This document shows positions 500-60,096 of a stretch of 64,000 nucleotides of DNA, in pieces. Made by a program: the position numbers and the translations under genes. The stretch comes from Carcharhinus amblyrhynchos (Eukaryota). Positions within the stretch are counted from its first letter, which is position 1; each line of letters starts with the position of its first letter. The notes under the pieces are model-generated. The model saw only the letters and a list, made by a program, of their open reading frames with translations. It searched no databases and was not told the DNA's origin. The DNA lies in assembly GCA_965287045.1 (NCBI GenBank), contig OZ336878.1:100254001-100318000 (forward strand). Direction: 5' to 3'.

Positions 500-810
500 T
501 CATAGTCTCACAACAACAGGTATGCCAATTGTCAATGGAGTGAGGAAGAGAGTCTTCAGAAAGAAGGTGGTGACTTTTTTGTGCTCACAACCTCCAACGA
601 GGCTGTGAAGGCTCAGTGGCTGAGTATGTTCAAAGCAGAGGCCCATAGATTACTAGGCCGAAATGACATCAAGCAATCTGAGTGTCATGCAGTAAGATGG
701 AAGATCAGCCATTATCTAGTTTATTGGTGGACCAGGTTTGATGGGCCAATTGGCAGATCAGGCATGATGGGCTCATTGGCCTTTCCCTGCTCAAATCTTC
801 CCATTTATGT
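500..810 (+). mobile_element. CR1-type LINE 3' end, degenerate (duplicate ~32400-32710)
   Basis: GGCTGTGAAGGCTCAGT...TTCAAAGCAGAG...ATAGAT and a GATGGGC tail typical of CR1 3' ends. Confidence 0.55.
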
Positions 811-2889: not shown

Positions 2890-3545
2890 CATTACCGCAG
2901 CCTAACAGTCAGCACCAACACCTTGCAGTGAATGTGGGAGATGCAGCAGTTCACATTGACCAGAAACTAGCTGGACAAGTTAAATAAGTGCTGCAGTGAC
3001 AAGCTGCAGTCAGAGGACGGGTACCATGCAATGAGTAACTCCCCATCACACAGCCTACCTACGATTTACAAGGAGAACGCCAGGAATGTGATGGGATTCT
3101 CAACACTCGCCTGATTGAAAGATACTGAACCAACACGCCAGAAGCTGCAAACCATCCAGGGCGGCATACCGTTCGCCTACCTTACATATTCACTCCCTCC
3201 ATCACCAGTGCACTGTGGCTGTATTGTGTACCATACACAAGATGTAATGCAGCTACACTTCAAACCTCCTTTGATGACACTTTCCAAATTTATGACATCT
3301 ACCACCTGGAAGGACAAAACTGTCGGTGCAGGAAACGGCACCACCTGCAGGTTCCACTCCAAGTCATACAACTTTGTGATTTGGGAACATATCACTGTGC
3401 CTTCATGGCAATTGTGTCAAAATCATGGCACTCTCCCTCCCAAACAGTAGTGTGGGGGGACATCGAAACCCGATGCAGCATTTCAAGAAAACCAACGTCT
3501 CCCCCATTACATGAAACAATTAAAAGACGCAATAATTTGGGTCAC
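2890..3545 (+). mobile_element. Degenerate LINE 3' region (CR1/L2 group; duplicate ~34790-35450)
   Basis: Related to 13600-14400 and 31290-31690; TACAAGG...CAGGAATGTGATGG, CACCACCTGCAGGTTCCACTCCAAGTCA. Confidence 0.55.
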
Positions 3546-3554
3546 AATGTTAAT

Positions 3555-4043
3555 TTGAGGTTGGAATTACTCTGAGGGACTGCATTTAGTTAATGGACTG
3601 TATCAGTTTGAGGACAGTATCAATTTGAGTGTCTGTATTAGTTCGAGAGGATGCGGTTGTTTGAGGGGCTGTATTAGTTTGAGAGAATTTAAGAGTTGAG
3701 AGAACGTACCAGTTTGAGAGAATACCTTAGTTTGAGGGACTGTTTCAGTTTGTGAGATTGCATCTGCTTGTGGGACTGCAACAGTTGTGGGATTGTAACA
3801 GTTTGAGAGAATATATTAAGTTAAGAGAATGCATTCATTTGAGGGACTGTATTAGTTTGAGTGATTATAACAGTTGATGGATTGTACCAGTTTGAGAAGT
3901 TGTATCGTTGGATGGAATGGTACTAGTTTGGGGACTGCATTAGTTTAATGGACAGCACCAGTTAGGGTTTGTACCAATTTGAGAGAATCTGTTCATCTTG
4001 AGGAGCTGTATCAATTTGAGGGACTGTATCAATTTGACGAATT
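3555..4043 (+). repeat. Degenerate ~18-bp tandem array upstream of gene A
   Basis: Roughly 25 diverged units; consensus approximately TTTGAGGGACTGTATCAG. Confidence 0.85.
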
Positions 4044-4104
4044 GTTTTCTTTTCAGAGAAAGTCCTCATCTGATTTATTGAGTGGACTGGTACGTGTTAA
4101 AGAA

Positions 4105-4258
4105 TGATATGGAGATGCCGGCGTTGGACTGGGGTAAATACAGTAAGAAGTCTCACAACACCAGGTTAAAGTCCAACCAGTTTATTTGAGAGTAAAAATG
4201 ATCCTTTTCACTATCAAATAAACTTGTTGGATTTTAACCTGGTGTTGTGAGACTTCCT
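4105..4258. mobile_element. Short Penelope-like insertion forming a hairpin, with ~13-14 bp TSD (duplicate 36025-36177)
   Basis: Arms 4143-4198 and 4205-4260. TSD (T)ACGTGTTAAAGAA 4092-4104 / ACATGTTAAAGAA 4259-4271. Same terminal sequence as the GIY-YIG-bearing element at 28481-29019. Confidence 0.75.
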
Positions 4259-4547
4259 ACATGTTAAAGAAGGCAGCCACATCTCAGATGCAGCCGCACA
4301 GTCCTGAGAAGACAGTTCATATTTGAAATGGTAATTGCTGAATAGACACAGCTGAGAAAATCGTCATTGTAATATTGTGAGATCTGGGGAAGGACATGAT
4401 GCTGTGAGACTTATCAACACGATTGCTCAGAGAATAGAACTTCCAATTATTATTTGGTGAATTTGTGTGAATAAAACTGATCAGTCTTTTGTTTATCCCA
4501 ATGTAATCTCAGATCTAAACATGGTCTTTCACAACAGGCAGTGAACT

Positions 4548-4645
4548 CAGCTGTTGCAAAATGCTGACTTGTTTTGTTTTCAGAAACACATTTGAAAGAT
4601 GTTGTAACTTCAACGTCCCCATGGAGATGTCACAGTGTATAAAAA
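4548..4645 (+). promoter_or_regulatory. Putative core promoter of gene A
   Basis: CAGCTG 4548-4553, ATGTTGTAAC, TCCCCATGGA 4616-4625, TATAAAA 4638-4644 (87 nt before ATG). Conserved in the paralogues. Confidence 0.65.
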
Positions 4646-4724
4646 CAGTGAATATATCACACACGTGTTGAATTCAGAGAGATTGCCTGTACCACCAAGG
4701 ACAGATCACACCCTACAGAAAAAT

Positions 4725-7700
4725 ATGGAACCATTTCAAAGGATTCTAAAAATATACTACACAATTCTTGCTATCATTGGTGTACCTGGTAAGTGACTAA
4801 GAACGCTGAAGTTGTGTGAGTTGTTTTCTGTTTTACTCTGTGATTGGTAATGTTATACACTGATCTACTGGTGACTGTTATAATAAACTCGATCAATGAG
4901 ATCATTTGATTCAGTGTGTAGCTGAATCAGACATCAGTATATGCAACTCTGAGAGGAGAGATCTTCCTGGATGGAAATGTTACAGTACAGTTATAATACA
5001 TGTGGGTCACCACCCAGAACAATTTGTTTCTTTTGTTATGTCCAGGTTTGTGCTGATGAGTCTCTCCACCTCACAGATCTGTTTCTGTGTTTCTGAATGT
5101 CACCAGTGACTAAGCCAAATATTTTTTTTTGTTGTTGGCTCAAAGTGTTGTGAATAAATGTATCCAATGAAATACATTGATACTGTTCAGTCTCCACTGG
5201 AACTGCTACAGAAATGTTAAAAACAAATAGTTAAACATGGGAACCACCCAGTTACAGCATTCAAACCCTGTGGACAATAACGTCCTCCCACACACAGCAT
5301 AACTGCTGAAAACACTGTTTTTGTTTCATTGCTGTTTCCCTCAACACAGCTTTGAGAATCTGTGGATGATAGATGTTTTTTATTATTATTGGCATTCACA
5401 GGGGGTGAATTTTGGGCTATGTCAATTAAATTCCCAAATGTTCAATGTTTAACAGACCAGTAATAATCCAGATCGTGAGTTTCAACACACATAGCTTACA
5501 CTGATCTCCACTTTTAGCTCAGTGACGTATATCCCCTCGAGAAAAGACAGTTATGACTGAAGAACATTGATGTTGCATTTCGGAATGTAGAAATCAGTTT
5601 GGAAACAGTAAATGTGAACATTATTGCATTGCTAGTAATGAAATAAATAGTGTACATCTCAATTAAAACGTCACTTCTCCAAAGTTATCAAAGTATTGCT
5701 AAACGTGATTAATTAATTAATTAAAAGGGTAATATCGAACATGTAGCTCAGGTACAAACCATATGGCCTTCGATGTACAACACAGAAACTTTCTCCCATC
5801 ACTCTCCATGTGACTGTTTAGCACAGCTTTCTGTATTCTGTACCACTGTCTGTTTTTACCCCTGAAATTCCCTTTAAGTTAATTCACCCTATTCACATTA
5901 ACGTCTCCAAGTTGTCGTGAAATCCACATTCTGACCATTCTTTGAGAAGATCTGTTGCCCAAGTACAGTTTTGGATTTATTAATGACTATGGTATTTTAA
6001 TGATATTTTATCTCAGACCACCCATCAATTGTAGATGTCTTCTCTGTGGCCACTTTATCAAACACATTCCTCATTTTCCAGCACCTGTCGATCTGAGATC
6101 AGCATTAACTTTTCTAAAGAAAGACCTCGACCTGTTCCTTCTTTCTGGGCAGTTAAAATCTCTCAATTCTGATATTACCCATCTCAAAGATTTTGTACCT
6201 TCTGCTGTGCATTCAGACCCTTGTTGTACTCTGGCAACCAGACTGTGCACAATGTGTTCATTATCAAGAACCAATGTTTTATATAGGTTTACGGTAACCT
6301 TTTTTATTTTCAATTCTTTCCCACTCAAAATGAAACTCGGTGATTTCTTTGATGTTTTATAATGTGTGTGGTGAATTTAGATGATTTGTGCATCTGGAGG
6401 CCTTTCTTCTTTATCTTGACCTTTTATTTTACATCACATATGTAGGAACATGACTTGACCAGTTAAGAGCAAACTCTAGACATTTATTAATGAACAACAA
6501 CTATTTACAGCCTGATGCACATTTATGCTTCCAGACATGACTTTAGGCTCTAACTGCTAGAACAAGCCGAGACAAGTTGGAGTGAAGCCCCAACTCGTTT
6601 CCCGATTGTTCAGCCCTGGTCATGTGACCCTTTCAGAATATTGCCCCTGAAAGGGGTCAGACACCAGCCCTCCCCCTCCCAATTCCTTTATGGACAGCAA
6701 AATAGTTCATTTAGATTGTCCCCATAATTTACAATTACAATTACAATTGGGGCGGCACGTTGGCACAGTGGTGAGCACTGCTGCCTCACAGCTCCAGGGA
6801 CTTGGGTTCGATTCCCGACTTGGGTCACCGTCTCTGTGGAGTTTGCACATTCTCCCCATGTTGGCATGGGTTTCTTCCGGGTGCTCTGGTTTCCTTCCAC
6901 AGTTCAAAGATGTGTAGCATAGGTGGATTGGCCATGTTAAATTGCTCCTTAGTATCAGGGGGACTAGCTGCGGTAAATGCATGGGGTTCTGGGGATGGGG
7001 CCTGGGTGAGATTGTGGCCAGTGCAGACTCGATGGGCCAAATGGCCTCCTTCTGCCCTGTAGGGATTCTATGATTCTATGGAGCTCCTGACTGTTTTGAT
7101 TACATCATTCCTTGTCTCCTTGTTAATAATTACAGTTTCCCAGAATTGCCTATTCTTTTTCCAATCATTATTTGCCAGTTTGATTCTGCCCATTATAAAT
7201 TACTTTCTTTCTCCCTCTCTCTCTGTGCATTGATTTATTTTTACCTGCAGAGTATTTGATTGCAGGAGTAAATACGCCTTTCCACACTTGCATAGCACAT
7301 TGTTGATGCTGAACCAGGATCATTTTGTGCAGTTTCACTTCCTTTACCAAAGGATCAATACATTCTCTGGACAAGGAATTTATTTTTTCATTCATCCATG
7401 GTATGTAGTTGTCTCTGCTTGGGCCAGCATTTATTGCCCATCCCATATTGCCAGTACATGGCATGCTATTTCAGACGGCAGGTAAAAGTCAAGATTCAAC
7501 TTGGCTCTGGGCTCACATGCAGATTCCTGACACGGTATGAGTGAATCTGTGTTATTGTGGGTCAATCCACAACACGTGGACTGTAGTGTTTCAAGAAGAA
7601 AGCTCACCAACACATTTTCAAGGCAAACTTGGGACATGCATTAAATGCTGGTCAGCCATATGCCATCAATGAATTAAAAAAAATCAGATTTCATGGGAAT

Positions 7701-8823
7701 CGACAATGCTTTCATGAATGCCAGGAATGGGATTTTACTGTCCCGTCCGCCATGGGAATTGGGATTGGTGATGAATAGACAGTGGAAAGGCCTGTTGATC
7801 TAGCGTGGGATTTTATGGTTTTAAGACAAGTGAGGCTGGAAAATCCCACCCCAGATATTTGTTGACAAAGAATCTCTGAAACGTAATTTCCATTCTTTGT
7901 TCTCTCTTACAGTTAACTTAGCTGCGATATTAATCCTGTCCCGAGGCAGGTGCGGCCTCTCCGCCTGCACGACTCGTTACCTGGTAGCCATGGCGACAGC
8001 GGATCTACTGTTCATTATCTGTTCAGTCTTACTCTATCGAATAGGTCCTTATTATTTCCCTTTATCATTCCTAGAAATCACTCCTGTGTGTTCTGTTACC
8101 TTTGTCCTGCTTTATGCAACCTCAGAGTGTTCTGTCTGGTTCACCGTCACTTTCTCCTTTGATCGATTTGTGGCCATTTGTTGCCAGAAGCTGAAAACAA
8201 AATATTGCACTGAGAGAACTGCGGCTGTGGTTCTAGCAGCAACCAGCATTCTGCTCTGTTTAAAGAATATTCCCTTCTACTTTAGATTTGAACCTAGAGA
8301 GATAATTGGTAATGTTCCCTGGTTTTGTCAGGAAAAGCCAAGCTATTATATTGATCCAAGATGGGTGGCATTTGACTGGTTTGATAAGATTTTAAGCCCA
8401 TTTCTCCCATATTTTTCAATTCTGTTGCTCAACGCTCTGACAGTCAGATGCATCTTAATGACCAGTCAAGACCGTAAGGGACTTAGGGGTCAGAGCAAGG
8501 GAGAGAATCACAGTGACCCAGAGATGGAAAGCCGAAGGAAGTCTGTGATTTTACTCTTCACCATATCCGGCAGCTTCATACTTCTCTGGCTGTTATATGT
8601 TACATATTTCTTTTATTATACAACTACTGGAATCAATTCTGAATCTTACAGTGATTCTTTATATGTCTTTGCGGAAGTTTCAGTTATGCTGGTAGATTTA
8701 AGTTGTTGCACAAACACATTTATTTATGCAGTAACTCAGAGCAAATTTAGGGAACAGTTAAAGTGTGCAGTGGGACATCCGATTGCAACAGTTATCCAAT
8801 TAATTAATAAAGAAGGCAACTGA
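4725..8823 (+). CDS. Gene A: GPR139/GPR142-like class A GPCR, intact, 324 aa; join(4725..4788,7913..8823)
   Basis: Exon 1 ATGGAACCA...GTACCTG|GTAAGT encodes MEPFQRILKIYYTILAIIGVP. Acceptor TTCTCTCTTACAG|TTAAC; G+TT restores Val in frame with ORF 7897..8823. 64+911=975 nt. Seven hydrophobic segments, AxAD in TM2, ITPVC (C3.25), DRF, PWFC in ECL2, NTFIY in TM7. TM1 resembles GPR139 VYYSLLLCLGLPANI (recalled). Confidence 0.92.
6441..6681 (-). mobile_element. 3' LTR with polypurine tract, in the intron of gene A (also 38332-38571 in C)
   Basis: On minus: GGGAGGGGGAGGG, then TG...CA (6666..6441) containing AATAAA. Confidence 0.6.
6750..7080 (+). mobile_element. HE1-like SINE in the intron of A (duplicate 38641-38968)
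   Basis: Full head, core and GATTCTAT-repeat tail. Confidence 0.9.
7726..7851. mobile_element. MITE-like element just upstream of the exon 2 acceptor (also ~39612-39737; decayed ~59010-59122)
   Basis: Imperfect TIRs GGGATTTTAC ... GAAAATCCC. Confidence 0.45.
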
Positions 8824-16020: not shown

Positions 16021-18583
16021 TAAAACAATTAAAGTGTTGCAACTGTTGTAAGTTTAAGTTTGGGAACTAAAATATTGATTTAATGGAAATTTGCTTAAGA
16101 AAATCTGAGGTGACTCCATCCTTGGCTTGTCTCATTAAACTAAATGTTGGGAAAGAGGTTAAATTAATGGTTGAATTACAACTGTATAAAATATATATAT
16201 ATTTTATTACAGCTAAGCAGACAAATTTAATAGCAATATGCTCAAACTCACTTATTTTCCAACATTAGGGGGCGAGCGAGGGGCAGAAAATCCCTCCCAT
16301 AAGCTCGGTATTGTCATTGCAACTTTTCAACATTTATGTTGCCAGCGATTGATCAGAACCGGCGACTCAAATGTTGAGAATATAGAATAATGACAAATTT
16401 TAACTGATGGTGTGTTCTGTCTAAACAGAGTTAATGCATTTTTGTTTAGTTAGGTTTCATTTGGATTTTCAGAGTTGGGTTTTGATTAGATTTAGTGACA
16501 GCCATGTAATTAATAAGAAGAGCTATGCTTGCAGGAAAGCCAGTGCTGTAAATTATTTTAACAAAAAGGGGATTTTAATCCTGATGCGCATAATTTTAAG
16601 TTGTACTGACTCTCAGATCCTCTCTCTTCCCTAACTTCAGAGCTATTTCTGTTGGCAAAATAGAGTCATGGTTACCACACCAGGCAGTTATAAATTTTGT
16701 GATTTCTTCTGATGTAGGGCAGAAGAAACTGTTTGTAAAACGCGCTTTCCGACAGACAGAGATTGCTGGGAGTTCACAAAACTTTTCCTTCTGTGGGCTG
16801 AGTTCTCCCAACAGCTAAATTGTGGAGGTCCTGATACACCTTTTCCCATTCAGAACATCCTTTATCAGAACTAACCTCCGCAGAAGTCATGCCAAATTAT
16901 ACTCATGAGTTCGCAATTTAGTAAACAGTTATGAAGTTCATGCCTCATCTCCTTCATTCATCCTTGAACATGTTTACTCGCATCTTTGCATTGTATTTTC
17001 CATTGTTATTAAGTTCTCTGCGAAACTTGTGTTTATAGTGTTGTTCGACAATCATCATGTCAAAAGCACTGGTTTCTTCGATACAGTTATCTCTACAACT
17101 TTGTAGTTTCCATATCGAAAATATTACAGACTGACAGTCAGTGGAACACACTTGGAACTATCAAATTGGCTTGATTTTCATATCATCACGATTTCCTGGC
17201 ATTAATTGATTTGCCTATTAGTTATCCTGCTGAATCACTCAATTCAAAAAATTACAATGAAACGTTCCTTCTTTGAAGTTCATGAGTCAATCAGTAAAGT
17301 TAATCTAAAGTGCACATGGAGAGATATTTTGGACATTAGTTGTTTATTAAAGAGGACACACAGAAATGCAATGTTCCATTCTGGAAACAACTATACTGTT
17401 GATCGAAAGAACATCACCTAGTTCCATACTTCACCATCTGGCTTCAAAATGAATTAAGGCTCCTTTTCCCCACAGCCACGACTACTAGTGGGGGGTGGGG
17501 GTGGGACGTTTTAATTCAAAATGATTCTGGTACGATTCAATTGATTGAAGTATTGAGGAGATTCCCTCTTTTGCTTTCTTTACTCATGAGTTGAATAATT
17601 GATGTAAACGGACATTTAATTAAACTCTTGAACTGCTCCCTGAACTTGGATTGAGTCACCCCATAGATAAGTGTGTTTGTGCAGCAGTTTAATTCCACCA
17701 GCATAGATCCGACTTCCTTACAAATATATGAAGAATCATTAAAATCATCTGGATTAATACCTCTAATTGTATAATACAAGAAGTTTAATACATATAAAAG
17801 CCACAGAAGTATAAAGCTGCCAGATATGGCGAAAAGTAAAATCATAGACTTCCTTCTGCTCTCCATCTCTGGGTCACTGTGATTCTTCCCCTTATTCTGA
17901 CTCTTCAGTCCTTTACGGACTCGACTGCTCACTAAAATGTACCTCACTGTCATAGCATTGAACAACAGAATTAAAATATATGGGAGAAATGGGGTTGAAA
18001 TCGTATCAAACCAGTCAAATGCCACCCAAGCAGGATCAGTATAATAGCTTGGATTACTATCACAGAACCAAGGAACATCGTCAATTATCACACCAGGTTG
18101 AAATGTAAAGTAAAAGGGAAGGCATTTTAAACAGTTCAGGATGCAGGTTATTGTTAGAACCACGGTTGCATTTTTCTCAGTGCAATATTTTATTTTCAGT
18201 TTCTGACAACAAATGGCTATAAAGCGATCAAAGGAGAACATGACAGTAAACCAGGTCGAGCAGTTTGCAGCTGCAAAAAGTAGGACAACAATAACACTAC
18301 ACACAGGGGTGATGTCCAGAAAAGATCCTGGGAAATAACAAGAACTGATCCGATACAGTACCACCTGAATGAAATTGAATATTAGATCCGACAATGCCAC
18401 GGCAACCAATTAACGGGTGGTGCAGGTGGAGAGGCCACACATTCTCCGGGACAGGGCCACGGTTGTCAGTAAATTGACTGCAGGCGAGATAAAGAGAAAA
18501 AGATTAGATACATTCAACTAAACTTCATTGTGCCTGAATTCGTTCAGTGAGTGCATGATTTCACAACTCAGAAATCGATTATT

Positions 18584-18645
18584 TGTGTGTGTGTGTGTGA
18601 GTGTGTGTGTTTGTGTGTGCATCTGTGTGTGTGGATGTGTGTTTA
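18584..18645. repeat. (GT)n microsatellite in the B1 intron (also 25324-25372 in B2)
   Basis: Interrupted TG run. Confidence 0.9.
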
Positions 18646-19869
18646 CGTGGTGCTCCGGGGGTAATGTTTAAGAAATTTCAATCCCATCTTCAATCTGCCG
18701 ATTGCCAGATGGAATGAGATTGCGTTGGAGAGAAGGGACAAACAGCTACTCCCTCTAGAAGAGCTGGAATTTTCATTATTTAATGATAATCGAAATCTCT
18801 GATTTAATGAGGTTCACATTTGTTTCTCTGGCCAGATGCATTTTGCCCTGTTGGATTCCACATTGATAATCCCAGCCTGAGCAATCCCTGGACACTTGGA
18901 TTTGGACTCCATCAACTCTGGGGTGACATGCTGTTCAGATACTTTAGGATTGCCCCCTCCCAACCATCCACCCGCCCACCTCCCCAGCCTCCATTGCAAT
19001 TGGGCACTTCATCTGATCCTCACTGTGAATGGATGTCTTCATGCCCTGGGGAATTATTGGATCATGCAAGGTCTGAAAATTTCAATATTAAATGCTGATA
19101 GGAGCCCCATGACTGAACCACCTCTGGGGTTGGAATGGATTTGGAGTGCCACTGTGAGGTCTAATAGTTTTTTGACCCACTATTCGGGCAGGGTGAAAGG
19201 TTGGTCGCAATCCTTGAATCTGGAAAGTAAACTAATGTGGTCAGAGAAGACGGGCGAGGAAAAATGAAATTCATGAGCTTCTCTAATTCCACAGTAAACA
19301 TTCGTGTTTACACTAAAAATTGCAGGAAAATCATAATAATAATTAAATATTAATGAGGGAGGACATATTTGATAAAGTGACAAGGATAAGGTAAAACCGC
19401 AGTCAGAGGCACAAATATCTGTTCATAATCATCATCAGAATAGGGAATAGCGACAGTTCTGTCCTGCTCTGACCCTCTCAGTAAACAGTTACCGTGCGTT
19501 TCTGTTGATGTCGATGACAACACAACAGAGCAATACCAATATATAGAGTCATCCGGCAGTACAGAACTAAAGTGTTATTGAAAAAGGTGAGGTGAGGAAG
19601 CTTCTTGTCTTACAGACATCAGGGCATGGTCCTGATGTGGATATTGATGCAAAGTGTCTGAGGAGTGCAAAACACTCCACTTGTCTCTTTCTTCAGCAAT
19701 GCCAATATATTCTATTTATCAAGTACCCGGAACGATCACCCAATGGCAAAGATTTCCTCTGTTACCATTGATTACATTTGTACAATCACAGGGACGGCTC
19801 GATGGTTTCGAGAGATCATTCACCTGAAACAGCAGGTCCAAGGGAGAAACCACTTGGTTCCACTCAGAT

Positions 19870-20215
19870 AGGTAACACACTCAGCACAATTCCATACTGA
19901 CAAATACTCCCAGTAACACACAGACACTCAGATCAGGAGTTCCTCTCCAGTTAGTGACCCAAACTGTTCAGTTCTCTAGTTACACATTTCCCTGTAATAC
20001 ATTGTCACCAGGGTTAGTATTCCATTCCAGTTGAGACCCACAATCTGAAGCAGATACTCCCAGTAACACATGGCTGAGATCAGGTGTTACACGCTAGTTT
20101 GTGACCCATATGGAGTAAAATTATGCAGTGACAGATACGACCAGTACTACATAATCACTGGGATCATATGTTCCACTCAAGTTGGTGACCCATCCAATAC
20201 ATGCAATTCTTCAGT
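19870..20215. repeat. Degenerate ~70-80 bp tandem repeat in the B introns (also 26590-26900)
   Basis: Recurring ACARATACTCCCAGTAACACA...GATCAGG...GTGACCCA units, 4-5 copies. Confidence 0.6.
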
Positions 20216-20678
20216 GAAAGAGACACCAAAAGTACAGGAATGTTTTAGGTCAAGTGGTCCATTCTGTTTCAGATCCTCGGTACAATATTACAGTGACAGT
20301 TATTCCCAGCGTTTGTTTCATTTTGCTCGTTCACGGTGTTAAAATCTATCGTGTTCTACACAGTGTTCCACTATGAGCAATTACTCTTTGTCTTCCTTTC
20401 AGTTGAGGTAAAATAATAAAACCAGAGTGGTAATTCGGGAGATTTGACTTAAAGTATCATCGATTTCGTGCCTGTAAATTGGTGGCCACCAAATCTGCTT
20501 AAAACCAGAGATGAGCTCATAGTGATAGATAAACACAACTTCAAAGATCATACTCGCTTACCAGGGACACCGATGACAGAAAGAATCATGTAGTATATTT
20601 TCCTGATCGTCTCAAATGTTTCCATACTTTACTGTGAAGTGATCTATCTTTTGAGTGATATGTGCTGGGAGCCTTTCA

Positions 20679-20784
20679 TTTATACCCCCGTGAATTCTCC
20701 ACAGGGAGAATAAGGTTACAACATTCTACAAAATTGTTTTCATTTGTTTTTAAGTAGCAGAAAAAAAACGATCTTGGACAGCTG
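20679..20784 (-). promoter_or_regulatory. Putative core promoter of gene B1
   Basis: On minus: CAGCTG (20779-20784), ATGTTGTAAC, TCCCTGTGGA (20698-20707), TATAAA (20679-20684). Confidence 0.6.
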
Positions 20785-21119: not shown

Positions 21120-21483
21120 CTGAGCAGCTCAAACTGAGAAAGCAATTCAAAGAATACAACTCCACGAATTTACATGGTCTATCAAATCAGGATAATCTTT
21201 CAATTAATGCAGTCTCTCAAACTGGGACATATACTCAACTTGATATAGTCCATCAAACCAGCACAGATCCTCAATCTGATACAGTCCCTCAAACTAATTA
21301 AGATCCGCAAAAAAAACCCTCAAACAACTACAGTCCCTCAAATACGGCAGTCCTTAAAACTAATAAAGGGCATCAAACGAATAAAGACCCTCAAACCAAA
21401 ATAGTCCCTCTAACTAGTATAGTTGCACAAAGTAATAAGACGCTCAAACAAATACAGATCCTCAAAGGAATACAACCGCAAAT
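21120..21483 (-). repeat. Same 18-bp array upstream of B1
   Basis: CTGATACAGTCCCTCAAA near 21276 is the exact reverse complement of the unit; many diverged flanking copies. Confidence 0.8.
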
Positions 21484-24277: not shown

Positions 24278-27200
24278 TCAATTGGTTGAAGTATTGAGGA
24301 GATTCCCTCTTTTGCTTTCCTTACTCGTGAGTTGAATAATTGATGTAAACGGACATTTAATTATACTCTTGAACTGCTCCCTGAACTTGGATTGAGTCAC
24401 CCCATAGATAAATGTGTTTGTGCAGCAGTTTAATTCCACCAGCATATATCCGACTTCCTTAAAAATATATGAAGAATCATTAAAATCATCTGGATTAATA
24501 CCTCTAATTGTATAATACAAGAAGTTTAATATATATATAAGCCACAGAAGTATAAAGCTGCCAGATATGGCAAAAAGTAAAATCATAGACTTCTTTCTGC
24601 TCTCCATCTCTGGGTCACTGTGACTCTCCCCCTTATTCTGACTCTTCAGTCCTTTACGGACTCGACTGCTCACTAAAATGTATCTGACTGTCATAGCATT
24701 GAACAACAGAATTAAAATATATGGGAGAAATGGATTTGAAATCCTATCAAACCAGTCAAATGCCACCCAAGCAGGATCAGTATAATAGCTTGGATTATTA
24801 TCACAGAACCAGGGAACATCGTCAATTATCGCACCAGGTTGAAATGTAAAGTAAAAGGGAATGCATTTTAAACAGTTCAGGATACACGTTGTTGACAGAA
24901 CCACGGTTGCGGTTTTCTCAGTGCAATATTTTATTTTCAGTTTCTGACAACAAATGGTCACAAAGCGATCAAAGGAGAACATGACAGTAAACCAGGTGGA
25001 GCAGTTTGCAGCTGCGAAAAGTAGGATAACAATAACACTACACACAGGGGTGATGTCCAGAAAAGATCCTGGGAAATAACGAGAAATGATTCGATTCAGT
25101 ACCACCTGAATGAAATTGAATATTAGATCTGACAATGCCATGGCGACCAAGTAACGGGTGGTGCAGGTGGAGAGGCCACACATTCCCCGGGACAGGACCA
25201 CAGTTGTCAGTAAATTGACTGCAGGCGAGATAAAGAGAAAAAGATTAGATACATTCAACTAAACTTCATTGTGCATGAATTCGTTCAGTGAGTGCATGAT
25301 TTCACAACTCAAAAATTGATTATTGTGTGTGTGTGTGTGTGAGTGTGTGTGTGTGGGTGTGGGTGTGTGTTTACGTGGTGCTCCGGGGGTAATACTTAAG
25401 AAATTTCAAACCCATCTTCAAGCAGCCGACTGCCAGATGGAATGAGATTGTGTTGGAGAGAAGGGACAAACAGCCACTCCTTTTAGAAGAGCTGGAATTT
25501 TCATTATTTAATGATAATCGAAGTCTCTGATTTAATGAGGTTCACATTTGTTTCTCTGGCCAGATGCATTTTGCCCTGTTGGATTCCACTTTGATAATCC
25601 CAGCATTCACAATCCCTGGACACTTGGATTTGGACTCCATCAACTCTGGGGTGACATGCTGTTCAGATACTTTGGGATTGCCCCCTCCCAACCACCCACC
25701 CGCCCACCTCCTCAGCCTCCATTGCAATTGGGCACTTCATCAGCTCTTCACTGTGAGTGGATCTCTTCATGCTGTGGGGAATTATTGGATCATGCAAGGT
25801 CTGAAAATTTCAATATTAATTGCTGATGGGAGCCCCATGACTGAACCTCTGTTGGGGTTGGAATGGGTTTGGAGTGACACTGTGAGGTCTAATAGCTTTT
25901 TCACCCACTATTCAGGCAGGGTGAAAGGTTGTTCGCAATCCTTAAATCTACAAAGTAAGCTCATGTGGTCAGAGAAGACCGGGGAGGAAAAATGAAATTC
26001 ATGAACTTCTCTAATTCAACAGTAAACATTAGTGAGTACATTGCAGGAAAATCATAATAATAAATAAATATTGGTGAGGGAGGACATATTTGATAAAGTG
26101 ACAAGGATAAGGTAAAACCGCAGTCAGAGGCTCAAATATCTGTTCATAATTACATTAGAATAGGGAATAGTGGCAGTTCTGTCCTGCTCTGACCCTCTCA
26201 ATAAACAGTTACCATGTGTTTCTGTTGATGTCAAACAGAACATAACAGAGCAACACCAATATACAGAGTCATCTGGCAGGACAGAACTAAAGTGTTGTTG
26301 AAAAAGGTGAGATGAGGAAGCTTCGTGTCTTACAGACATCAGGGCATGGTCCTGACATGGATATTGATGCAAAGTATCTGAGGAGTGCCAAACACTCCAC
26401 ATGTCTCCTGTTTCAGCAATTCCAATATATTCTATTTATCAAGTATTCGGAATGATCACTCAATGGCAAAGATTTCCTCTGTTACCATTGATTTCATTTG
26501 TACAATCACAGGGACAGCTCGATGGATTCGAGAGATCATTCACCTGAAACAGCAGGTCCAAGGGAGAGACCAGTTGGTTACATTCAGATAGGTAACCCAC
26601 TCAGCACAATTCCATGCTGACAAATACTTCCAGTAACACATAAACACTGAGATCAGGAGTTCCACTCCAACTAGTGTCCCACACTGTTCAATTCTCTCAT
26701 TACACATTTCCCTGTAATACATTGTCACCAGGGTTAGTATTCCATTACAGTTGAGACCCACAACCTGAGACAGTTACTCCGGTAATACATGGTTGAGATC
26801 AGGTGATCCATATGGAGTAAAATTATTCAGTGACAGATACGACCAGCACGACATAATCACTGGGATCATATGTTCCACTTAATTTAGTGACCCACCCAAT
26901 ACATGCAATTCCTCAGTGAAAAGACACCAAAAATACATGAACATTGGGGGGTCAAGTGGTCCATTCTGTTTAAGATCGTCAGTGCAATATTACAGTGACA
27001 GTTATTCCCTGCATTTGCTTCATTTTGCTAGTTCACGGTACTCAAATCTATTGTGTTATACAAAGTGTTCCACTATGAGCAATTACTCTTTGTCTTCCTT
27101 TCAGTTGAGGTAAAATAATAAAACCAGAGTGGTAATTCGGGAGATTTGACTTAAAGTATCATCGATTTCGTGCCTGTAAACTAGTGACCACCAAATCTGC

Positions 27201-27327
27201 TTAAAACCAGAGACGAGCTCATACTGATAGATAAACACGACTTCAAAGATCATACTCACTTACCAGGGACACCGATGACAGCAAGAATCATGTAGTATAT
27301 TTTCCTGATCATCTCAAATGTTTCCAT
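24278..27327 (-). CDS. Gene B2: GPR139/GPR142-like class A GPCR, intact, 334 aa; complement(join(24278..25218,27264..27327))
   Basis: Exon 1 METFEMIRKIYYMILAVIGVP|GTAAGT; acceptor TTTATCTCGCCTGCAG|TCAAT. 64+941=1005 nt. DRF, VPWFC, SDPEMESR and NTFIY motifs present. Confidence 0.92.
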
Positions 27328-27392: not shown

Positions 27393-27500
27393 TTTTAAAC
27401 CCCCGTGAATTCTCCACAGGGAGAATAAGGTTACAACATTCTACAAAATTGTTTTCATTTGTTTTTAAGTAGCAGAAAAAAAAACGATCTTGGACAGCTG
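27393..27500 (-). promoter_or_regulatory. Putative core promoter of gene B2
   Basis: On minus: CAGCTG (27495-27500), TCCCTGTGGA (27413-27422), TTTAAAA in the TATA position (27393-27399). Confidence 0.55.
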
Positions 27501-27834: not shown

Positions 27835-28195
27835 AACTGAGCAGCTCAAACTGAGAAAGCAGTTCAAAGAATACAACTCCATAATCTTACATGGTCTATC
27901 AAATCAGGATAATCTTTCAATTAATGCAGTCTCTCAAACAGGGACATCTACTCAACTTCATATAGTCCCTCAAGCCAGCACAGACCCTCAATCTGATACA
28001 ATCCCTCAAACTAATTAAGATCCACAAAAAAATTAAGATCCTCAAACAACTACAGTCCCTCAAATACTGCAGTCCTTAAAACTGATAAAGGACATCAAAT
28101 GAATAAAGACCCTCAGGCCAAAATAGTCCCTCCAACTAATAGAGTCCCACAAAGTAATAAGACACTCAAACAAATACAGATCCTCAAAGGAATGT
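27835..28195 (-). repeat. Same 18-bp array upstream of B2
   Basis: Repeated ...AGTCCCTCAAA...-type units. Confidence 0.8.
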
Positions 28196-35454: not shown

Positions 35455-35963
35455 ATTTGAGGTTGGAATTACTCTGAGGGACTGCATTTAGTTAATGGAC
35501 TGTATCAGTTTGAGAACAGTATCAATTTGAGTGTCTGTATTAGTTCGAGAGGATGCGGTTGTTTGAGGGACTGTATTAGTTTGAGAGAATTTAAGAGTTG
35601 AGGGAACGTACCAGTTTGAGAGAATACCTTAGTTTGAGGGACTGTTTCAGTTTGTGAGATTGCATCTGCTTGTGGTACTGCAGCAGTTTTGGGATTGTAA
35701 CAGTTTGAGAGAATATATTAAGTTAAGAGAATGCATTCATTTGAGGGACTGTATTAGTTTGAGTGATGATAACAGCTGATGTATTGTACCAGTTTGAGAA
35801 GTTGTATCGTTGGATGGAATGGTACCAGTTTGGGGGCTGCATTAATTTAATGGACAGCACCAGTTAGGGTTTGTACCAATTTGAGAGAATGTGTTCGTCT
35901 TGAGGAGCTGTATCAATTTGAGGGACTGTATCAATTTGAGGGAATGTATCAATTTGAGGAATT
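35455..35963 (+). repeat. 18-bp array upstream of C
   Basis: Copy of the gene A array with one additional unit near 35920-35960. Confidence 0.85.
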
Positions 35964-36467: not shown

Positions 36468-36565
36468 TCAGATGTTGCAAAATGCTGACTTGTTTTCTTT
36501 TCAGAAACACATTTGAAGCATGTTGTAACTTCAATGTCCCCATGGAGATGTCACAGTGTACAAAA
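36468..36565 (+). promoter_or_regulatory. Promoter homologue of pseudogene C
   Basis: CAGATG, TCCCCATGGA 36537-36546, TACAAAA 36559-36565. Confidence 0.5.
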
Positions 36566-36645
36566 ACAGAGAATATATCATTCACGTGTTGAATTCAGAG
36601 AGACTGCCTGTCCCACCAAGGACAGATCACACCGTACAGAAAAAT

Positions 36646-39600
36646 ATGGAACCGTTTCAAGGGATTCTAAAAATATACTACACAATTCTTGCTATCATTG
36701 GTGTACCTGGTAATTGAGTGTGAACACTGAAGTTGTGTAAATCTGTGTGAGTTGTTTTCTGTTTTACTCTGTGATTGAGAATGTTATACACTGATCTACT
36801 GGTGACTGTTATACATAAACTCGATCAATGAGATCATTTGGTTAAGGGTGTATCTGAATCACACATCAGTATATGCAACTCTGAGAGGAGAGATCTTCCT
36901 GGATGGAAATGTTACGGTACAGTTATAATACATGTGGGTCACCACCCAGAACAATTTCTTTCTTTTGTTACGTACAGGTTTGTGCTGATGAGTCTCTCCA
37001 CCTCATGGATCTGTTTCTGTGTTTCTGAATGTCACCAGTGACCAAGCCGAATATTTTTTGTTATTGGCTCAAAATGTTTATGAATAACTGTATCCAAAGA
37101 AATATATTGATACTGTTCAGTCTCTACTAGAATATTACAGAAGACAGAAATGTGAAAAGTAGTTAAACACTGGGACCACACAGTTACTGCATTCAAACCC
37201 TGTAGACAATAACGTACTCTCACACACAGCATAGTTGCTGAAAACACTGTTTTTGCTTCACTGCTGATTAATCTGTTTTCCTCAACACAGCCTTGAGAAT
37301 ATGTGGGTCATGGATGTTTCGTTTTTTATTATTGGCATTCACAGTGGGTGAATTTTGGGCTATGGCAATTAATTTCCCAACTGTTCAATGTTTAACAGAC
37401 CAGTAAGAATCCAGATCATGAGTCTCAACACACAAAGCTGACACTGATCTCCGCTTTTAGCTGAGTGAGGCATATCCCCTCGAGAAAGGACAGTTACGAC
37501 TGAAGAACATTGATGTTGCATTTGGAATGTAGAAATCAGTTTGGAGGCGGTAAATGTGAAATTTATTACTTTGCTAGTAATGAAATAAATAGTGTGCACC
37601 TCAATTAAAAGGTCACTTGTGCAAAGTTATCAAAGGATTGCTAATTGTGATTAATTAATTAATATATTTATAGAGCCATATTGAATATGTAGCTCAGGAC
37701 ATATCACATGGCTTTTGTTGGACTGCACAGAAACGTTCTTCCATCACTGTCCATATAATCTGTTCAGCAAGCTTCTCCTATTCTGTACCACTGTCTTTTT
37801 TTTAAAATTTCCCTTTAAATTAATCCATGCTGTTCACATTAAAGTCTCCATGTTGCAGTGAATTACACATTCTGACCGTTCTTTGAGAGGATCTGTTCCC
37901 CCGAATACACTTTTGAATTTATTAATGATGATACTATTCTAATGAGATTTATTCTGATACCACCCATCAATTGTAGATGTTGTCTCTGTGGTCACTTTAT
38001 CGTACACATTCCTCATTTTCCAAAGAAAGACCTCAACCTGTTCCTTCTTTCCAGAGAGTTAAAATCTGTCAATTCTGATATTACCCATCTCAAAGATTTT
38101 GTACCGTTTTCTGTGCATTCAGATCCTTGTTGTACTCTGGCAACCAGACTGCGCACAATGCATTCATTATCAAGAACCAATGTTTTATAACCTCTTTTAT
38201 TTTCAATTCTTTCCCACTCTCAAGGGAACTTGGTGATTTGTTTGATTTTTTTAACTCGTGTGGTGAATTTAAATGATATGTGCATCTGGAGGCCTTTCTT
38301 CTTTATCTTGACCTTTTTTTTATATTACATATGTAGTAACATGACTTGACCAATTAAGAGCAACCTCCAGACGTTTATTAATGAACAGCAACTATTTACA
38401 GACTGATGCACATTTATGCTTCCAGACATGACTTTAGGCTCTAACTGCTGGGACAAGCCGAGACAAGTTGGAGTGAAGCCCCAACTCGGTTCCCGATTGT
38501 TCAGCCCTGGTCATGTGACCGTTTCAGAAGATTGCCCCTGAAAGGGGTCAGACACCACCCCTCCCCCTCCCAGTTCCTTTATGGACAGCATAAGAGTTCA
38601 TTTAGATTGTCCCCATAATTTACAATTACACTTACAATTGGGGCAGCACGGTGGCACAGTGGTGAGCACTGCTGCCTCACAGCTCCAGGGACTTGGGTTC
38701 GATTCCCGACTTGGGTCACCATCTGTGTGGAGTTTGCACATTTTCCCCATGTTGGCATGGGTTTCTCCTGGGTGCTGCGGTTTCCTTCCACAGTTCAAAG
38801 ATGTGCAGCTTTGGTGGATTGGCCAGACTAAATTGTCCCTTGTTATCAGGGGGACTAGCTACGGTAAATGCATGGGTTATGGGGATGGGGCCCGGGTGAG
38901 ATTGTGGCCAGTGCAGACTCGATGGGCCAAATGGCCTCCTTCTGCCCTGTAGGGATTCTATGACTCTATGGAGCTCTTGACTGTTTTGATTATATCATTC
39001 ACTGTCTCCTTGTTAATAATTACAGTTTCCCAAAATTGTCTATTCTTTTTCTCATCATTATTTGCCAGTTTGATTCTGCCCATTATAAATTACTTTCTTT
39101 CTCCCTCTCTGTGTATTGATTTATTTTTACCTGTAGAGTATTTGATTGCAGGAGTAGATATGCCTTTCCACACTTGCACAGCACATTGTTGATGCTGAAC
39201 CAGGATCATTTTGTGCAGTTTCACTTCCAAAAGATCAATACATTCACTGGAGAAGGAATTTATTTTTTCATTCATCTATGGATTGTAGTTGTCTCTGCTT
39301 GGGCCAGCATTTACTGCCCATCCCATATTGCCAGTACACGGCATGCTATTTCAGAGGGCAGGTAAAAGTCAAGATTCAACTTGGCTCTGGGCTCACATGC
39401 AGATTCCTGAAACAGTATGAGTGAATCTGTGTTATTGTGGGTCAACCCACAACACGTGGACTGTAGTGTTTCAAGAAGAAAGCTCACCAACACATTTTCA
39501 AGGCAAATTTGGGATGCGCATTGAATGCTGGTCAGCCATCTCGCACCAATGAATAAAAAAAAACAAGATGAGGATTCATGGGAATCGACAATGCTTTCAT

Positions 39601-40556
39601 GGGTGCCAGGAATGGGATTTTACTGTCCCGTCTGCCATGGGACTCGGAACTGGTCAGGAGTAGACAGTGGAAAAGTCTGTTGATCTGGCATGGGATTTTA
39701 TGGTTTCAAGACAAGTGAGGCCGTAAAATCCCACCCCAGATATTTGTTGGCAAAAAATCTCTGAAACATAATTTCCATTCTTTGTTCTCTCTTACAGTTA
39801 ATTTAGCTGCGATATTAATCCTCTCCCGAGGCAAGTGCGGCCTCTCCACCTGCGCCTCTCGTTACCTGGTGGCCATGTCAACAGCGGATCTACTGTTCAT
39901 TATCTGTTCAGTCTTTCTCTATCGAATAGGTCCTTATTATTTCCCTTTATCTTTCCTAGAAATCACTCCTGTATGTTGTGTGACCTTCGTACTGCTTTTT
40001 GTGACCACAGAGTGTTCTGTCTGGTTCACTGTCACTTTCTCCTTTGATCGATTTGTGGCCATTTGTTGCCAGAAGCTGAAAACAAAATATTGCACTGAGA
40101 GAACTGCGGCTGTGGTTCTTGCAGCAACTGCCTTTCTGCTATGTTTAAAGAATATTCCCTACTACTTTAGATTTGAACCACGAGAGATAATTGATAATGT
40201 TCCCTGGTTTTGTCAGGAAAAGCCAAGCTATTATATTGATCCAAGATGGGTGGCATTTGACTGGTTTGATAAGATTTTAAGCCCATTTGTCCCATGTTTT
40301 TCAATTCTGTTGCTCAACACTGACAGTCAGATGCATCTTAATGACCAGTCGAGCCTGTAAACGACTGAGGGGTCAGAGCAAGGGAGAGAATCACAGTGTC
40401 CCAGAGATGGAAAGCCGAAGGAAGTCTGTGATTTTACTGTTCACCATATCCGGCAGTTTCATACTTCTCTGGCTGTTATATGTTACACATTTCTTTTATT
40501 ATACAACTACAGGAATCAATTCTGAATCTTACAGTGATTCTTTATATGTCTTTGCG
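36646..40556 (+). pseudogene. Gene C: A-type GPCR pseudogene (exon 1 36646..36709, exon 2 from 39798)
   Basis: 2-nt deletion near 40321 (CTCAACACTGACAG vs CTCAACGCTCTGACAG in A) splits the ORF. Homology stops after YVFA at ~40556, so TM7 and the C-terminus are deleted. TATA mutated to TACAAAA. Confidence 0.9.
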
Positions 40557-49909: not shown

Positions 49910-50225
49910 GCTCTGACAGTCAGGGACAGATGGAAAGCAGAAGGAAGTCTATGATATTGCTCTTCAGCATTTCTGGCAGCTTTCCACTTTGTGGTTATTG
50001 TGTGTTATACATTTCCTATAGTATATTATCACAGGAATCAACCATGTGTGTTCCAGTAATCTTACATATTTCTTTGCAGATGTTGGAGTTATGCTTCTGA
50101 ATTTATATTGTTGTCCAAATGCGTTTATTTATGGGGTGATTCATCACAAGATAAGGGAGCAGTTCAAGAGTGTGTTGAAATATCCATTTACATCCATTAT
50201 TCAATGACTTAATCAACAAAACTAC
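49910..50225 (+). pseudogene. Gene D: decayed 3' fragment (TM5 end to C-terminus) of a sixth paralogue
   Basis: GCTCTGACAGTCAG (ALTVR), then ATGGAAAGCAGAAGGAAGTCTATGATATTGCTCTTCAGCATTTCTGGCAGCTTT (MESRRKSMILLFSISGSF), then CCPNAFIYGV-like and REQFKSVLKYPFTSIIQ-like segments, with an internal deletion, frameshift and stops. Confidence 0.85.
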
Positions 50226-51969
50226 AGTCAGCAGACCAGAGGCGAGTACTAGAGCTTGCATTTCATGATTGGAACATTTATCCTGAGTTTTCAATCAACT
50301 GAATGATATCAGGAATCACTGAGGATATAAAAATACCTGCAGTCGTGGCGTGGTATTGGTGATGGTGGAGAGGAAGAGATCGGCATTTGGACATGGACGG
50401 GGGGGAGGACGACCATTACAAGGTCCCCTACAGGACATGATGGGGAACAGAAGCCATAGGGCTAGATATTCGAGCCCTTGACACTGGTGAGATCTTCCAG
50501 TCCCGGCAATGTAAATAGGCAGTTAAAGGAATTGCCGTGACTTAATTTTCTCCACCTCCACTCAGCTACTCATACCTGCTCAGATAGAAACAATATTTGC
50601 TTAAAAGACTGGCTGCTGCGAATGCCAACCATTTTATTATATATATTACCCTGAGTATTAGGTTTTTGAAGATATTTGATTTAACCTGTATCCACGCCCC
50701 TTCCACCCCCCATCCCTCCACCCCGCCCATCCCACACTCTATCTTTTATCTCTAATTCTCTCCTTCTTTTCCCATCATTACATTGGGGATGGAAGGGTGG
50801 GTTTCTGTCTGCCTATGGCCCTGCTGAGTGGACCAAACATGGAGAGGAGAGCTTGGGTGAGCTACTGGGATTGGCGTCATAGCATCTGCCAATTATGGCA
50901 TCACAACCTAGTGGCTGATTACTGGGCAGGAACTAATCCCTTCCTTGCTTCAATGTCAGCTGATACCTGTTATTGTAGATAAGTTAATCACTTCGTGGTT
51001 CATCCCTGCTTCCTTGAAATCCCTCGATCTGCATCATAGCTGCTGCAGGGACTAGAGTTCCGAGGGAGACTAGGCCTGAATCAGCACTGCGCTGGATTTT
51101 AAACACTGAACAGTTGCTGCGCTCCACTCTCCGGACGCTTCTCCCATATGGAACAGAATCTTCAGAGCTGTGGATCGATATTCCCTATTTATGGCATCAT
51201 CTACTGTAAATCTGTAACTCCCACCCTCTTTGACAAATAAGAATTTGATTATGTAAGATAAGCAAGTGGAATGAGTTGGTTGACTGGGGGGACTGGGTTG
51301 TTGGAGGCTAGCCTTACAACTTAGGAGGTTGTGTGTTCAGGGGCGTGAGGAGGCAGAGGGTGCAGGGAGGTGGGATATCCTGGAAGTCAGATGGTCAGGG
51401 TGTCATGCAGAGGGAGAGGTGGGATTGTAGGTGGGAATAGGAATCGGATTGTCACAGGTTGGGAGGTGGGGTAATCGGATCACCGTTGCTATGAAGAATT
51501 GGAAGTGGTAGTGATTTGTCTAACATTTCCTGGCTGACTATTCTGCTAATAAAATCTGAACCACATGAAGACTCCAATTCAAAATGGAGACTGGGATGGT
51601 TCCAGGCTAATGGTTGAACGAGAGTTTGAAGTACTGGGCATTTCATGTGCAGCTCTCTGGTGTTGATCCAGAAGGAACTCTTCCCATTTGGACAATAAAA
51701 ATATAATGATACTGACTCCAATTTATAAATCAAAGAAAAGGTTTAATGAGGAAATATCATTACTCCAATACCTAAGGCCCCACCCTAAGCCATTCCAAGC
51801 CATCTGACAACTCCCAACAGGTTCTTATTCATATTGAGTCCACTGGTCAGCTGATCATCACATCATTCTGTCCTTGACTACATGGTTTATTGGTTTGTAG
51901 AAGGTGTCAGCTGGCCCTTACGGCTTGTTATGATGGGTCACAGAACAGCAGATATAGTACCAGTTACAT

Positions 51970-55610: not shown

Positions 55611-55969
55611 CCACCCCGCTCCGCCTCCCACACCCCCGCCACTCCCCACATCCCAAACACGGATCTCACAGCAATTCCTGAGCCAGCCTTGGCCATCCCT
55701 TCCTGGAGCGTGACGATGCACAGCCTACACCCCCAGCACTGGCAACCCCCCCACCTCCCTCATCACAGTACCCGCCCCACCCCGGGCTGATCGCCTCACA
55801 GAATGGCATAGAACATTACAGCGCAGTACAGGCCCTCCGGCCCTCGATGTTTCGCCGACCAGTGGAACCAATCTAATGATCCTCTAACCTAAACTATTCC
55901 AGTAGGTAGAACCCCTCTCCCCCTCCGCACTGCGGAGGCAGGCCCCACCATCGGCAAACAATGTAAGAA

Positions 55970-56301
55970 TTGAGGGGATGTAGCAGTTGAGAGAATACCT
56001 TAGTTTGAGGGCATGTTTCAGTTTGTGGGACTGTATCTGCTGGTGGGGCCGCTACAGTTGTGGGATTGGAATAGCTTGAGAGAATATATTAGGTTGAGGG
56101 AATATATTCATTTGAGGGACTGTATTAGTTTGAGGGATTATAACAGTTGACGGATTGTACCAGTTTGAGAGAATGTATTGTTGGATGGATGGTACCAGTT
56201 TGGGGACTTTATTAGTTTAAGGGACAGCACCAGTTAGGATTTGTACCAATTTGAGAGAATATGTTTCATCTTGAGGGGCTGAATCAGTTTGAGGGACTGT
56301 T
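55970..56301 (+). repeat. 18-bp array upstream of E
   Basis: Alignable to the proximal two-thirds of the gene A array. Confidence 0.85.
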
Positions 56302-56630: not shown

Positions 56631-56727
56631 CAGCTGTTGCAAAATGCTGACTTGTTTTTTTTCAGAAACACATTTGAAAGATGTTGTAACTTCAATGTCC
56701 CCATGGAGATGTCACAGTGTATAAAAA
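56631..56727 (+). promoter_or_regulatory. Putative core promoter of gene E
   Basis: CAGCTG 56631-56636, TCCCCATGGA 56698-56707, TATAAAA 56720-56726. Confidence 0.65.
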
Positions 56728-59800: not shown

Positions 59801-60096
59801 AAAGTCGAAGGAAGTCTGTGATGTTACTCTTCACCATATCCGGCAGCTTCATACTCCTCTGGCTGTTATATGTTACATATTTCTTTTATTACACAACTAC
59901 AGGAATCAATTCTGAATCTTACAGTGAGTCTTTATATGTTTTTGCAGAAGTTTCAGTTATGCTGGTGAACTTAAGCTGTTGTACAAACACATTTATTTAC
60001 GCAGTGACTCAGAGCAATTTCAGGGAACAGTTAAAGCATGCAGTGGAATGTCCTATTGCAAAAATTATCAAGTTAATTAATAAGGACAGCAACTGA
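56807..60096 (+). CDS. Gene E: GPR139/GPR142-like class A GPCR, intact, 324 aa; join(56807..56870,59186..60096)
   Basis: Exon 1 MESFQRIQKIYYTILAIVGVP|GTAAGT; acceptor CCTCTCTTACAG|TTAAT, in frame with ORF 59170..60096. Same motifs as gene A. Confidence 0.92.

Follow-up and report, generated by a model that had tools for sequence, protein, structure and literature searches.

A probable core-promoter block with an EBF/COE-like site upstream of tandem shark receptor genes of the "probable GPR139" family

Receptor genes and upstream features of the locus

The window, a 64-kb stretch of the Carcharhinus amblyrhynchos genome, contains five tandem two-exon class A GPCR genes, here called A, B1, B2, C, and E, of which three are intact (A and E, 324 aa each, and B2, 334 aa) and two, B1 and C, are pseudogenes (Table 1). 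Each consists of a coding exon 1 of 64 nt, an intron of 2.0-3.1 kb, and a long exon 2. All four translated exon-2 regions matched Pfam 7tm_1 with 58-75 bits (gathering cut-off 30.5), and the start codon is typical of the family, with 21-22 residues preceding exon 2 in 59 of the 66 database models that have an exon-1-like segment. Also present is a lone 3' fragment of a sixth receptor gene, a more distant paralogue that is 70-74% identical to the others; neither an exon 1 nor the upstream block was found for it in the window.

The five copies fall into two lineages, A/C/E and B1/B2. Genes of the A type and the B type are separated by a dS of 0.60-0.67 and are 61-64% identical at four-fold sites, and dN/dS of the receptor genes is 0.32-0.50. 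The unit carrying A (1-8673) and that carrying C (31900-40556) are 92.5% identical across 8.7 kb, and this unit is a mosaic, because the upstream DNA from -1500 to -340 is 96% identical and the intron only 91%.

An earlier note on this DNA had described a motif block common to both subfamilies, which is present as described upstream of all five genes, 99-126 nt above the receptor start codon and at no other place in the window. Within the block, the longest invariant stretch is the 10-mer ATGTTGTAAC, which contains TGTTGTAA, is found exactly five times in the window, and is better kept than the O/E (EBF/COE)-like site TCCCYRTGGAG that begins 17 nt after each ATGTTGTAAC and ends 11-12 nt above the TATA position. 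The claim that a TATA box follows in both subfamilies stood for three of the five genes, A, E, and B1, where it is canonical, but not for C (TACAAAA) or B2 (TTTAAAA); B2, the only intact B gene, reads GGGGGTTTAAAATG with no TATAWAW. The E-box is likewise found in all five genes (CAGATG in C), at a distance that in B slightly exceeds the 60-75 bp given for it, its start preceding the O/E-like site by 67-68 nt in A/C/E and by 77-78 nt in B. CAGCTG occurs at 34 places in the window. Besides the TGTTGTAA of the 10-mer, a second copy of the 8-mer lies as TGTTGCAA at -47 in A/C/E. TGTTGYAA may resemble C/EBP-ATF-type bZIP motifs. Tandem TGTTGCAA and TGTTGTAA, 9 nt apart, were also seen at 16035-16051 and 22159-22175, in a duplicated segment adjoining the B genes. 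A search of the window against Rfam gave no matches.

Further upstream, about 400-1000 bp above the block, all five genes carry a degenerate 17/18-bp array of 15-26 units in the same orientation, which occurs nowhere else in the window, has higher-order periods of 71 and 89 bp, and contains a TTGAGRGA core resembling one EBF half-site. Array identity is 87.8% between A and E, 91.8% between B1 and B2, and 62.2% between A and B2; the array thus diverges at about the neutral rate, and it is therefore regarded as an ancient minisatellite that was copied together with the duplication unit. A multimerised enhancer was considered and was not supported: although the TTGAGGG core is better preserved than the remainder of the unit, the array diverges about neutrally and its units do not count as independent.

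Two other repeats were observed. Between array and block in A (4096-4271) and C (36020-36190), and not in E, there is an element about 165 bp long that encloses a palindrome and is bounded by a 9-bp direct repeat, GTTAAAGAA; a related piece is located near 11979-12065. Copies of a 300-bp interspersed repeat, which is probably a shark SINE, are found with 67-78% identity at 82-391, 6749-7066, 11218-11547, 13947-14255, 31980-32293, 38640-38960, 46266-46586, and 49115-49436.

Table 1 Coordinates of the receptor genes and of the features upstream of them in the window
Feature	Position	Strand	Details
Array upstream of A	3595..4045	+	17/18 bp, unit about AGTTTGAGGGACTGTATY
E-box CAGCTG of A	4548..4553	+	overlaps TGTTGCAA element 4552-4559; aligns with B E-box
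10-mer ATGTTGTAAC of A	4599..4608	+	invariant; contains TGTTGTAA; reads ATG-Leu-stop
O/E (EBF/COE)-like site TCCCCATGGAG of A	4616..4626	+	one mismatch to TCCCYRGGGAR
TATA box TATAAAA of A	4638..4644	+	
Gene A, coding exon 1	4725..4788	+	64 nt, GT donor
Gene A, exon 2	7913..8823	+	spliced protein 324 aa, intact, 7tm_1
Gene B1	17537..20625	-	exon 1 20625-20562, exon 2 from 18477; pseudogene, stop at codon 44
Upstream block of B1	20678..20784	-	E-box 20779-20784, 10-mer 20715-20724, O/E-like 20697-20707, TATAAAT 20678-20684
Array upstream of B1	21263..21474	-	18 bp
Gene B2	24278..27327	-	exon 1 27327-27264, exon 2 25218-24278; intact, 334 aa
Upstream block of B2	27393..27500	-	E-box 27495-27500, 10-mer 27430-27439, O/E-like 27412-27422, TTTAAAA 27393-27399
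Array upstream of B2	27980..28188	-	18 bp
Array upstream of C	35497..35959	+	18 bp
Upstream block of C	36469..36566	+	CAGATG 36469-36474, 10-mer 36520-36529, O/E-like 36537-36547, TACAAAA 36559-36565
Gene C	36646..40555	+	exon 1 36646-36709, exon 2 from 39798; pseudogene, 2-nt deletion, 3' end lost
Isolated 3' fragment	49928..50283	+	sixth, more distant receptor paralogue
Array upstream of E	55960..56300	+	18 bp
Upstream block of E	56631..56727	+	E-box 56631-56636, 10-mer 56681-56690, O/E-like 56698-56708, TATAAAA 56720-56726
Gene E	56807..60096	+	exon 1 56807-56870, exon 2 59186-60096; intact, 324 aa
Probably homogenised tract among A, C, and E (-250..+46 from the 10-mer)	A 4349-4645, C 36270-36566, E about 56431-56727	+	

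Descent, likely constraint, and probable homogenisation of the upstream DNA

From -340 to +46, A/C/E are 95% and B1/B2 96% identical, so that the five copies provide one real comparison, not five. Between the subfamilies, the upstream DNA can be aligned for at least 700 bp, with 61-73% identity (z 4-13 against shuffles) and a near-neutral identity of about 62%, and the intron 3' ends and 3' flanks of the genes do not align (z at most 1.0). As read from these alignments, most of the sharing between the promoters is plain common descent.

The block itself is gap-free between the subfamilies over 46 nt, of which 31-33 are identical, little above the neutral 61-64%. The 39 bp that abut the TATA position on its 5' side are homologous by descent and mildly raised in conservation, forming the highest-conserved non-coding window of the alignment: 28 of the 39 columns are invariant among the five copies, the corresponding figures being 152 of 312 for gap-free upstream columns and 26 of 50 for four-fold sites. 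In simulated neutral evolution, such a block had a P of 0.001-0.009 if its position was fixed beforehand and, as the best window in 400 bp, a P of 0.08-0.33, which is not significant, so that some constraint on these 39 bp is likely, though of modest strength. The invariant run of 10 columns had a neutral P of 0.09-0.23.

Within the subfamilies, the promoter region is more similar than its surroundings. A and E are 94.7% identical over -340..+46, compared with 82.3% for their introns and 83.8% for their leaders, and B1 and B2 are 96.3% identical over the same interval, compared with 92.2%. Changes private to E number 3 of 295 positions in -250..+46 and 185 of 1278 in the intron, whereas those private to A are not reduced (10 of 295 and 49 of 1278; Fisher P for the ratio 4e-5, for a tract whose boundary was chosen after the data had been seen). 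E is the nearest relative of C over -250..-60 and of A over -60..+46; in the intron, A and C are sisters. The pattern suggests that the tract in A/C/E was probably homogenised by gene conversion, which is favoured over steady selection because the E branch alone is shortened and the tract is near neutral between the subfamilies; uniform purifying selection as the source of the identity was rejected, only the E branch being shortened. Relaxed selection on A after the duplication may be an alternative. Conversion-like homogenisation has been described in mouse V1R promoters, for which gene conversion was likewise suggested (PMC1955453).

The O/E-like site and the possible activity of the block

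As the earlier note had stated, TCCCYRTGGAG is one mismatch away from TCCCYRGGGAR, and this holds in all five copies and in both lineages. The mismatch lies inside a half-site, at the G adjoining the spacer, a base that both published consensus strings give as fixed, TCCCNNGGGA (PMC4312928) and TCCCyngrgar (PMC3247239). Within TCCCnnTGGAGA, differences between copies fall on the two spacer bases only (CA versus TG), which could be two decay products of one ancestral CpG; TCCC and TGGAGA are invariant across the copies, which represent two lineages only. The window contains 9 one-mismatch matches to TCCCYRGGGAR where 6.55 were expected, and 20 of 100 shuffles reach 9; since the motif is not enriched, what carries weight is where it lies and that both lineages have retained it. 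In simulations, two neutral lineages both had a one-mismatch TCCCYRGGGAR at the same position within 200 bp with a P of 0.7-1.3e-4, which a rough correction for 177 motif families changes to about 0.02, and the corresponding retention of TCCCNNGGGA had a P of 7e-4. The proposal of an O/E-type promoter thus fared partly well: a core promoter is likely and the O/E resemblance beats usual neutral retention, but the mismatch falls in a half-site and the sharing is mostly by descent.

In mouse, O/E sites are concentrated close to OR and V1R start sites (PMC3247239, PMC3247230), and in odorant receptor enhancers EBF tolerates degenerate half-sites when Lhx2 binds at a fixed spacing (PMC5608512). In A/C/E, TAATKR sites lie about 150 and 267 nt upstream; none is found in B1/B2 within 400 bp, and neither TAATKR nor TAATTR stands next to the O/E-like site in any of the five copies. 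An Lhx2/Ebf composite motif was rejected, no ATTA being found at the composite spacing on either side of any of the five copies when these were compared by eye with the published probe. An RFX X-box, in the form that we presume for this motif, was also rejected: A/C/E differ from it at two positions, and B has nothing matching at the site. For the predicted palindromic dimer site TCCC-NN-TGGA, EBF/COE is the best named candidate, an assignment that we hold tentatively and at somewhat less than even confidence; the COE site is plausible but putative.

The block is a probable proximal core promoter. An initiator-like TCACTC is found at +29/+30 below the TATA position in B1/B2, and no good initiator was found at +28..+32 in A/E. 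We lean slightly towards the overall proposal of a Pol II promoter of a duplicated gene family, copied with the gene units, served by TBP and one or more upstream activators, and homogenised within the subfamilies. According to this model, each unit would comprise the 18-bp array, about 400 bp of proximal DNA with the promoter, the 64-nt exon 1, the intron, and exon 2. TBP would bind the TATA box or its variant, transcription would start about 25-35 nt below it and give a short leader, and one or two activators would bind directly upstream, possibly a dimeric factor on TCCC-NN-TGGA, with EBF/COE as the best named candidate, and a bZIP-type factor on TGTTGTAA, and gene conversion would keep the promoter homogeneous within each subfamily. 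The start site, the bound factors, and the tissue are predictions of this model from the sequence.

Olfactory expression had been suggested from the motif set, and it survives as one plausible reading, the motif set itself not fixing the tissue. According to this reading, a true O/E site would drive expression in olfactory sensory neurons, which in sharks are microvillous, and the genes would encode chemoreceptors, a possibility that we regard as real but doubtful. The tandem arrangement of the genes, the two pseudogenes among five copies together with the fragment, the dN/dS values, and a hypervariable ligand pocket (see below) are consistent with it, as are the O/E-like sites present in all 39 mouse V1R promoters examined (PMC3247230), the conversion-like homogenisation of V1R promoters (PMC1955453), and the degenerate EBF sites known in OR enhancers (PMC5608512). 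It is weakened by the lack of TAAT/ATTA at composite spacing in every copy and of TAATKR from B1/B2, and by a catshark atlas whose top-50 list for brain and olfactory epithelium contains no GPCR (PMC11979771), though this counts for little, sparse receptors being expressed at low levels. The caution that EBF also acts in B cells and other neurons was borne out: EBF1 functions in B cells, in adipocytes, and in other neurons, and together with E47 it regulates a B-cell promoter (PMC4312928), so that the combination of an EBF site and an E-box names no tissue. Chemosensory neurons are accordingly only one plausible site of expression, which the sequence features would suit but which we would not expect with confidence.

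A functional promoter active elsewhere, in B-lineage or other immune cells, gut, or brain, is a similarly tentative reading, in which EBF would act with an E-box factor of the E2A type, or a C/EBP-ATF-type bZIP factor would act on TGTTGYAA. The joint action of E47 and EBF1 is consistent with this, as is the fact that the best-kept run is the 10-mer with TGTTGTAA and not the O/E site, with a second TGTTGCAA at -47 in A/C/E; true GPR139, moreover, is described as a brain receptor. Against it, TGTTGYAA is common, with 21 matches in the window, and no octamer is common to the five promoters. ATF5 and C/EBP reportedly act at V2R promoters, to which we gave no weight as evidence.

It is rather unlikely that the block is just the best-preserved stretch of inherited upstream DNA, with no functional site besides TATA and an incidental O/E match. 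Such a neutral relic would agree with the long upstream alignment at close to four-fold identity, the non-significant best-window P, the lack of motif enrichment in the window, a CA/TG spacer that would fit CpG decay, and an effective sample of two lineages. It is opposed by the fixed-position P, by the joint keeping of the one-mismatch O/E site (P about 1e-4), and by a conservation peak lying directly against TATA in genes whose intron 3' ends and 3' flanks are unalignable.

The least probable reading, which we consider improbable, is that the block belongs to a longer 5' leader transcribed from further upstream, in which ATG-TTG-TAA (start-Leu-stop, within the 10-mer of all five copies, e.g. 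4599-4607; neutral P of sharing such a 9-mer about 0.02) would be a minimal uORF: a pyrimidine tract with CAG lies at -18 in A/C/E, and mouse V1R start sites lie inside, not below, the homology peaks (PMC1955453), but the acceptor-like site has 10-11 of 14 pyrimidines against 12-13 in the real acceptors, sites with at least 11 pyrimidines occur 1.4-1.9 times per kb per strand, B has none there, and the TATA box of B1 with its correctly spaced initiator favours a start below the block.

As a gauge of promoter conservation across the family, database gene models reading through the leader or promoter were sought. A query of residues 1-45 of P0099 returned only P0099 itself, no representatives were found of the 61-aa read-through frame of gene A, and of the 66 exon-1-like models four extend by at least 8 residues, none of which beat its own shuffles against the promoter translations. 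By eye only, the extensions of P0099 (Cetorhinus) and P0104 (Heterodontus) contain a QRDCL stretch like the leader frame of gene A, hinting that this leader may be conserved across sharks; in the test of this likeness P0099 was not significant, and P0104 is outside the four models tested.

The receptor family and comparison with known systems

Two homologue searches gave 1346 and 2157 matches, of which the best 120 of each were examined. Among the best 120 of one search, 119 were named shark proteins, mostly "probable GPR139"; in the other, all the best 120 were shark proteins, the closest among them from Cetorhinus (74-78%). About 74 clusters at <90% identity in the former list, counted by eye among its 120 matches, came from Heterodontus francisci. 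In a tree of 44 of the 143 fetched proteins, picked to cover species, together with four proteins from the window, A and E form a group with basking, whale, zebra, and cat shark genes that leaves out B (98/92, from a bootstrap that had not converged); the split between A and B therefore probably predates those shark orders.

GPR139 is the best solved-structure match for B2 (E 4e-10), another GPR139 match has an E of 3e-7, and for gene A, GPR15 outscores GPR139. In GPR139, the polar residues R244 (R6.51) and N271 (N7.38/39) take part in Trp/Phe binding (PMC5430874). In the family alignment, position 6.51 is mostly Y and 7.39 is variable, so that these polar ligand residues are not kept. Orthology to GPR139 was rejected, given only distant E-values and the loss of these residues, and the "probable GPR139" label is, judging from these comparisons, a best-hit name.

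Entropy was calculated for 128 of 144 sequences, 16 having been dropped as short or lacking the anchor motif, and is 1.77 bits at 24 canonical pocket positions chosen by class A numbering; 126 other TM positions have 0.63 and, in the outer helix halves, 35 positions outside the pocket have 1.17 (P 0.006 for the latter comparison). The family thus has features of the chemoreceptor type, namely a large tandem family, pseudogenes, and a variable ligand pocket. Tandem layout, frequent pseudogenes, and a variable pocket give it the look of a ligand-diverse repertoire, which immune or gut receptor families could match. We found no study of the shark "probable GPR139" family in the literature available to us, which included PMC12294341 and in which subscription journals are thinly covered. 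A term search of the accessible text of a GPR139 review gave no mention of sharks (PMC12208981), and GPR139 does not occur in the accessible text of a shark chemoreceptor survey (PMC10116579), nor "gpr" in the main text of the catshark atlas (PMC11979771).

OR, TAAR, and V1R genes are very scarce in sharks, and the catshark has 34 V2Rs (PMC10116579). We raise as speculation, without expecting it to hold, that the shark "probable GPR139" genes might be an overlooked chemoreceptor repertoire of dozens to hundreds of genes per species, independent of OR, TAAR, V1R, and V2R and with convergent regulatory logic, in which an EBF site would stand against the core promoter and conversion-homogenised promoters would let paralogues compete for singular choice. 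If this were true, the view that the shark nose relies on about 34 V2Rs plus a few other receptors would be overturned, and if the family is expressed in olfactory neurons, the shark chemoreceptor repertoire would be much larger than thought. Taken alone, the motif is unremarkable, an imperfect transcription-factor site within a duplicated promoter, and it matters as a pointer to the family: it adds one example to a known class of elements, and the receptor family with its V1R-like promoter behaviour is the stronger lead.

Among known systems, GPR139/GPR142 resemble the shark family as the best solved-structure match for B2, in the kept W6.48, and as the source of the database label, whereas the shark family is distant, multi-copy, and hypervariable in its pocket, and has lost the polar ligand residues. 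Mouse odorant receptor promoters with O/E sites (PMC3247239, PMC5318403) likewise have a TCCC-NN-GGGA-type site less than 200 bp from the presumed start, are AT-rich, belong to tandem GPCR clusters, and have TATA in a subset; in contrast, the shark site is single and mismatched at the half-site G next to the spacer, homeodomain sites are not shared between the subfamilies, the first exon is coding, and the receptors do not belong to the ORs. For the Lhx2/Ebf composite (PMC5608512), the core TCCTTGGAGAT of the Sfaktiria probe resembles the A-type CCCATGGAGAT, but all five shark copies lack ATTA at the composite spacing. Mouse V1R promoters (PMC1955453, PMC3247230) share with the shark genes paralogue promoters that are closer than the introns, signs of conversion, homology across co-clustered subfamilies, and O/E-like sites near the start; they differ in that the shark tract measures about 300-400 bp, compared with 500-1000 bp in V1R, and abuts a coding exon, and in that the receptor families are unrelated.
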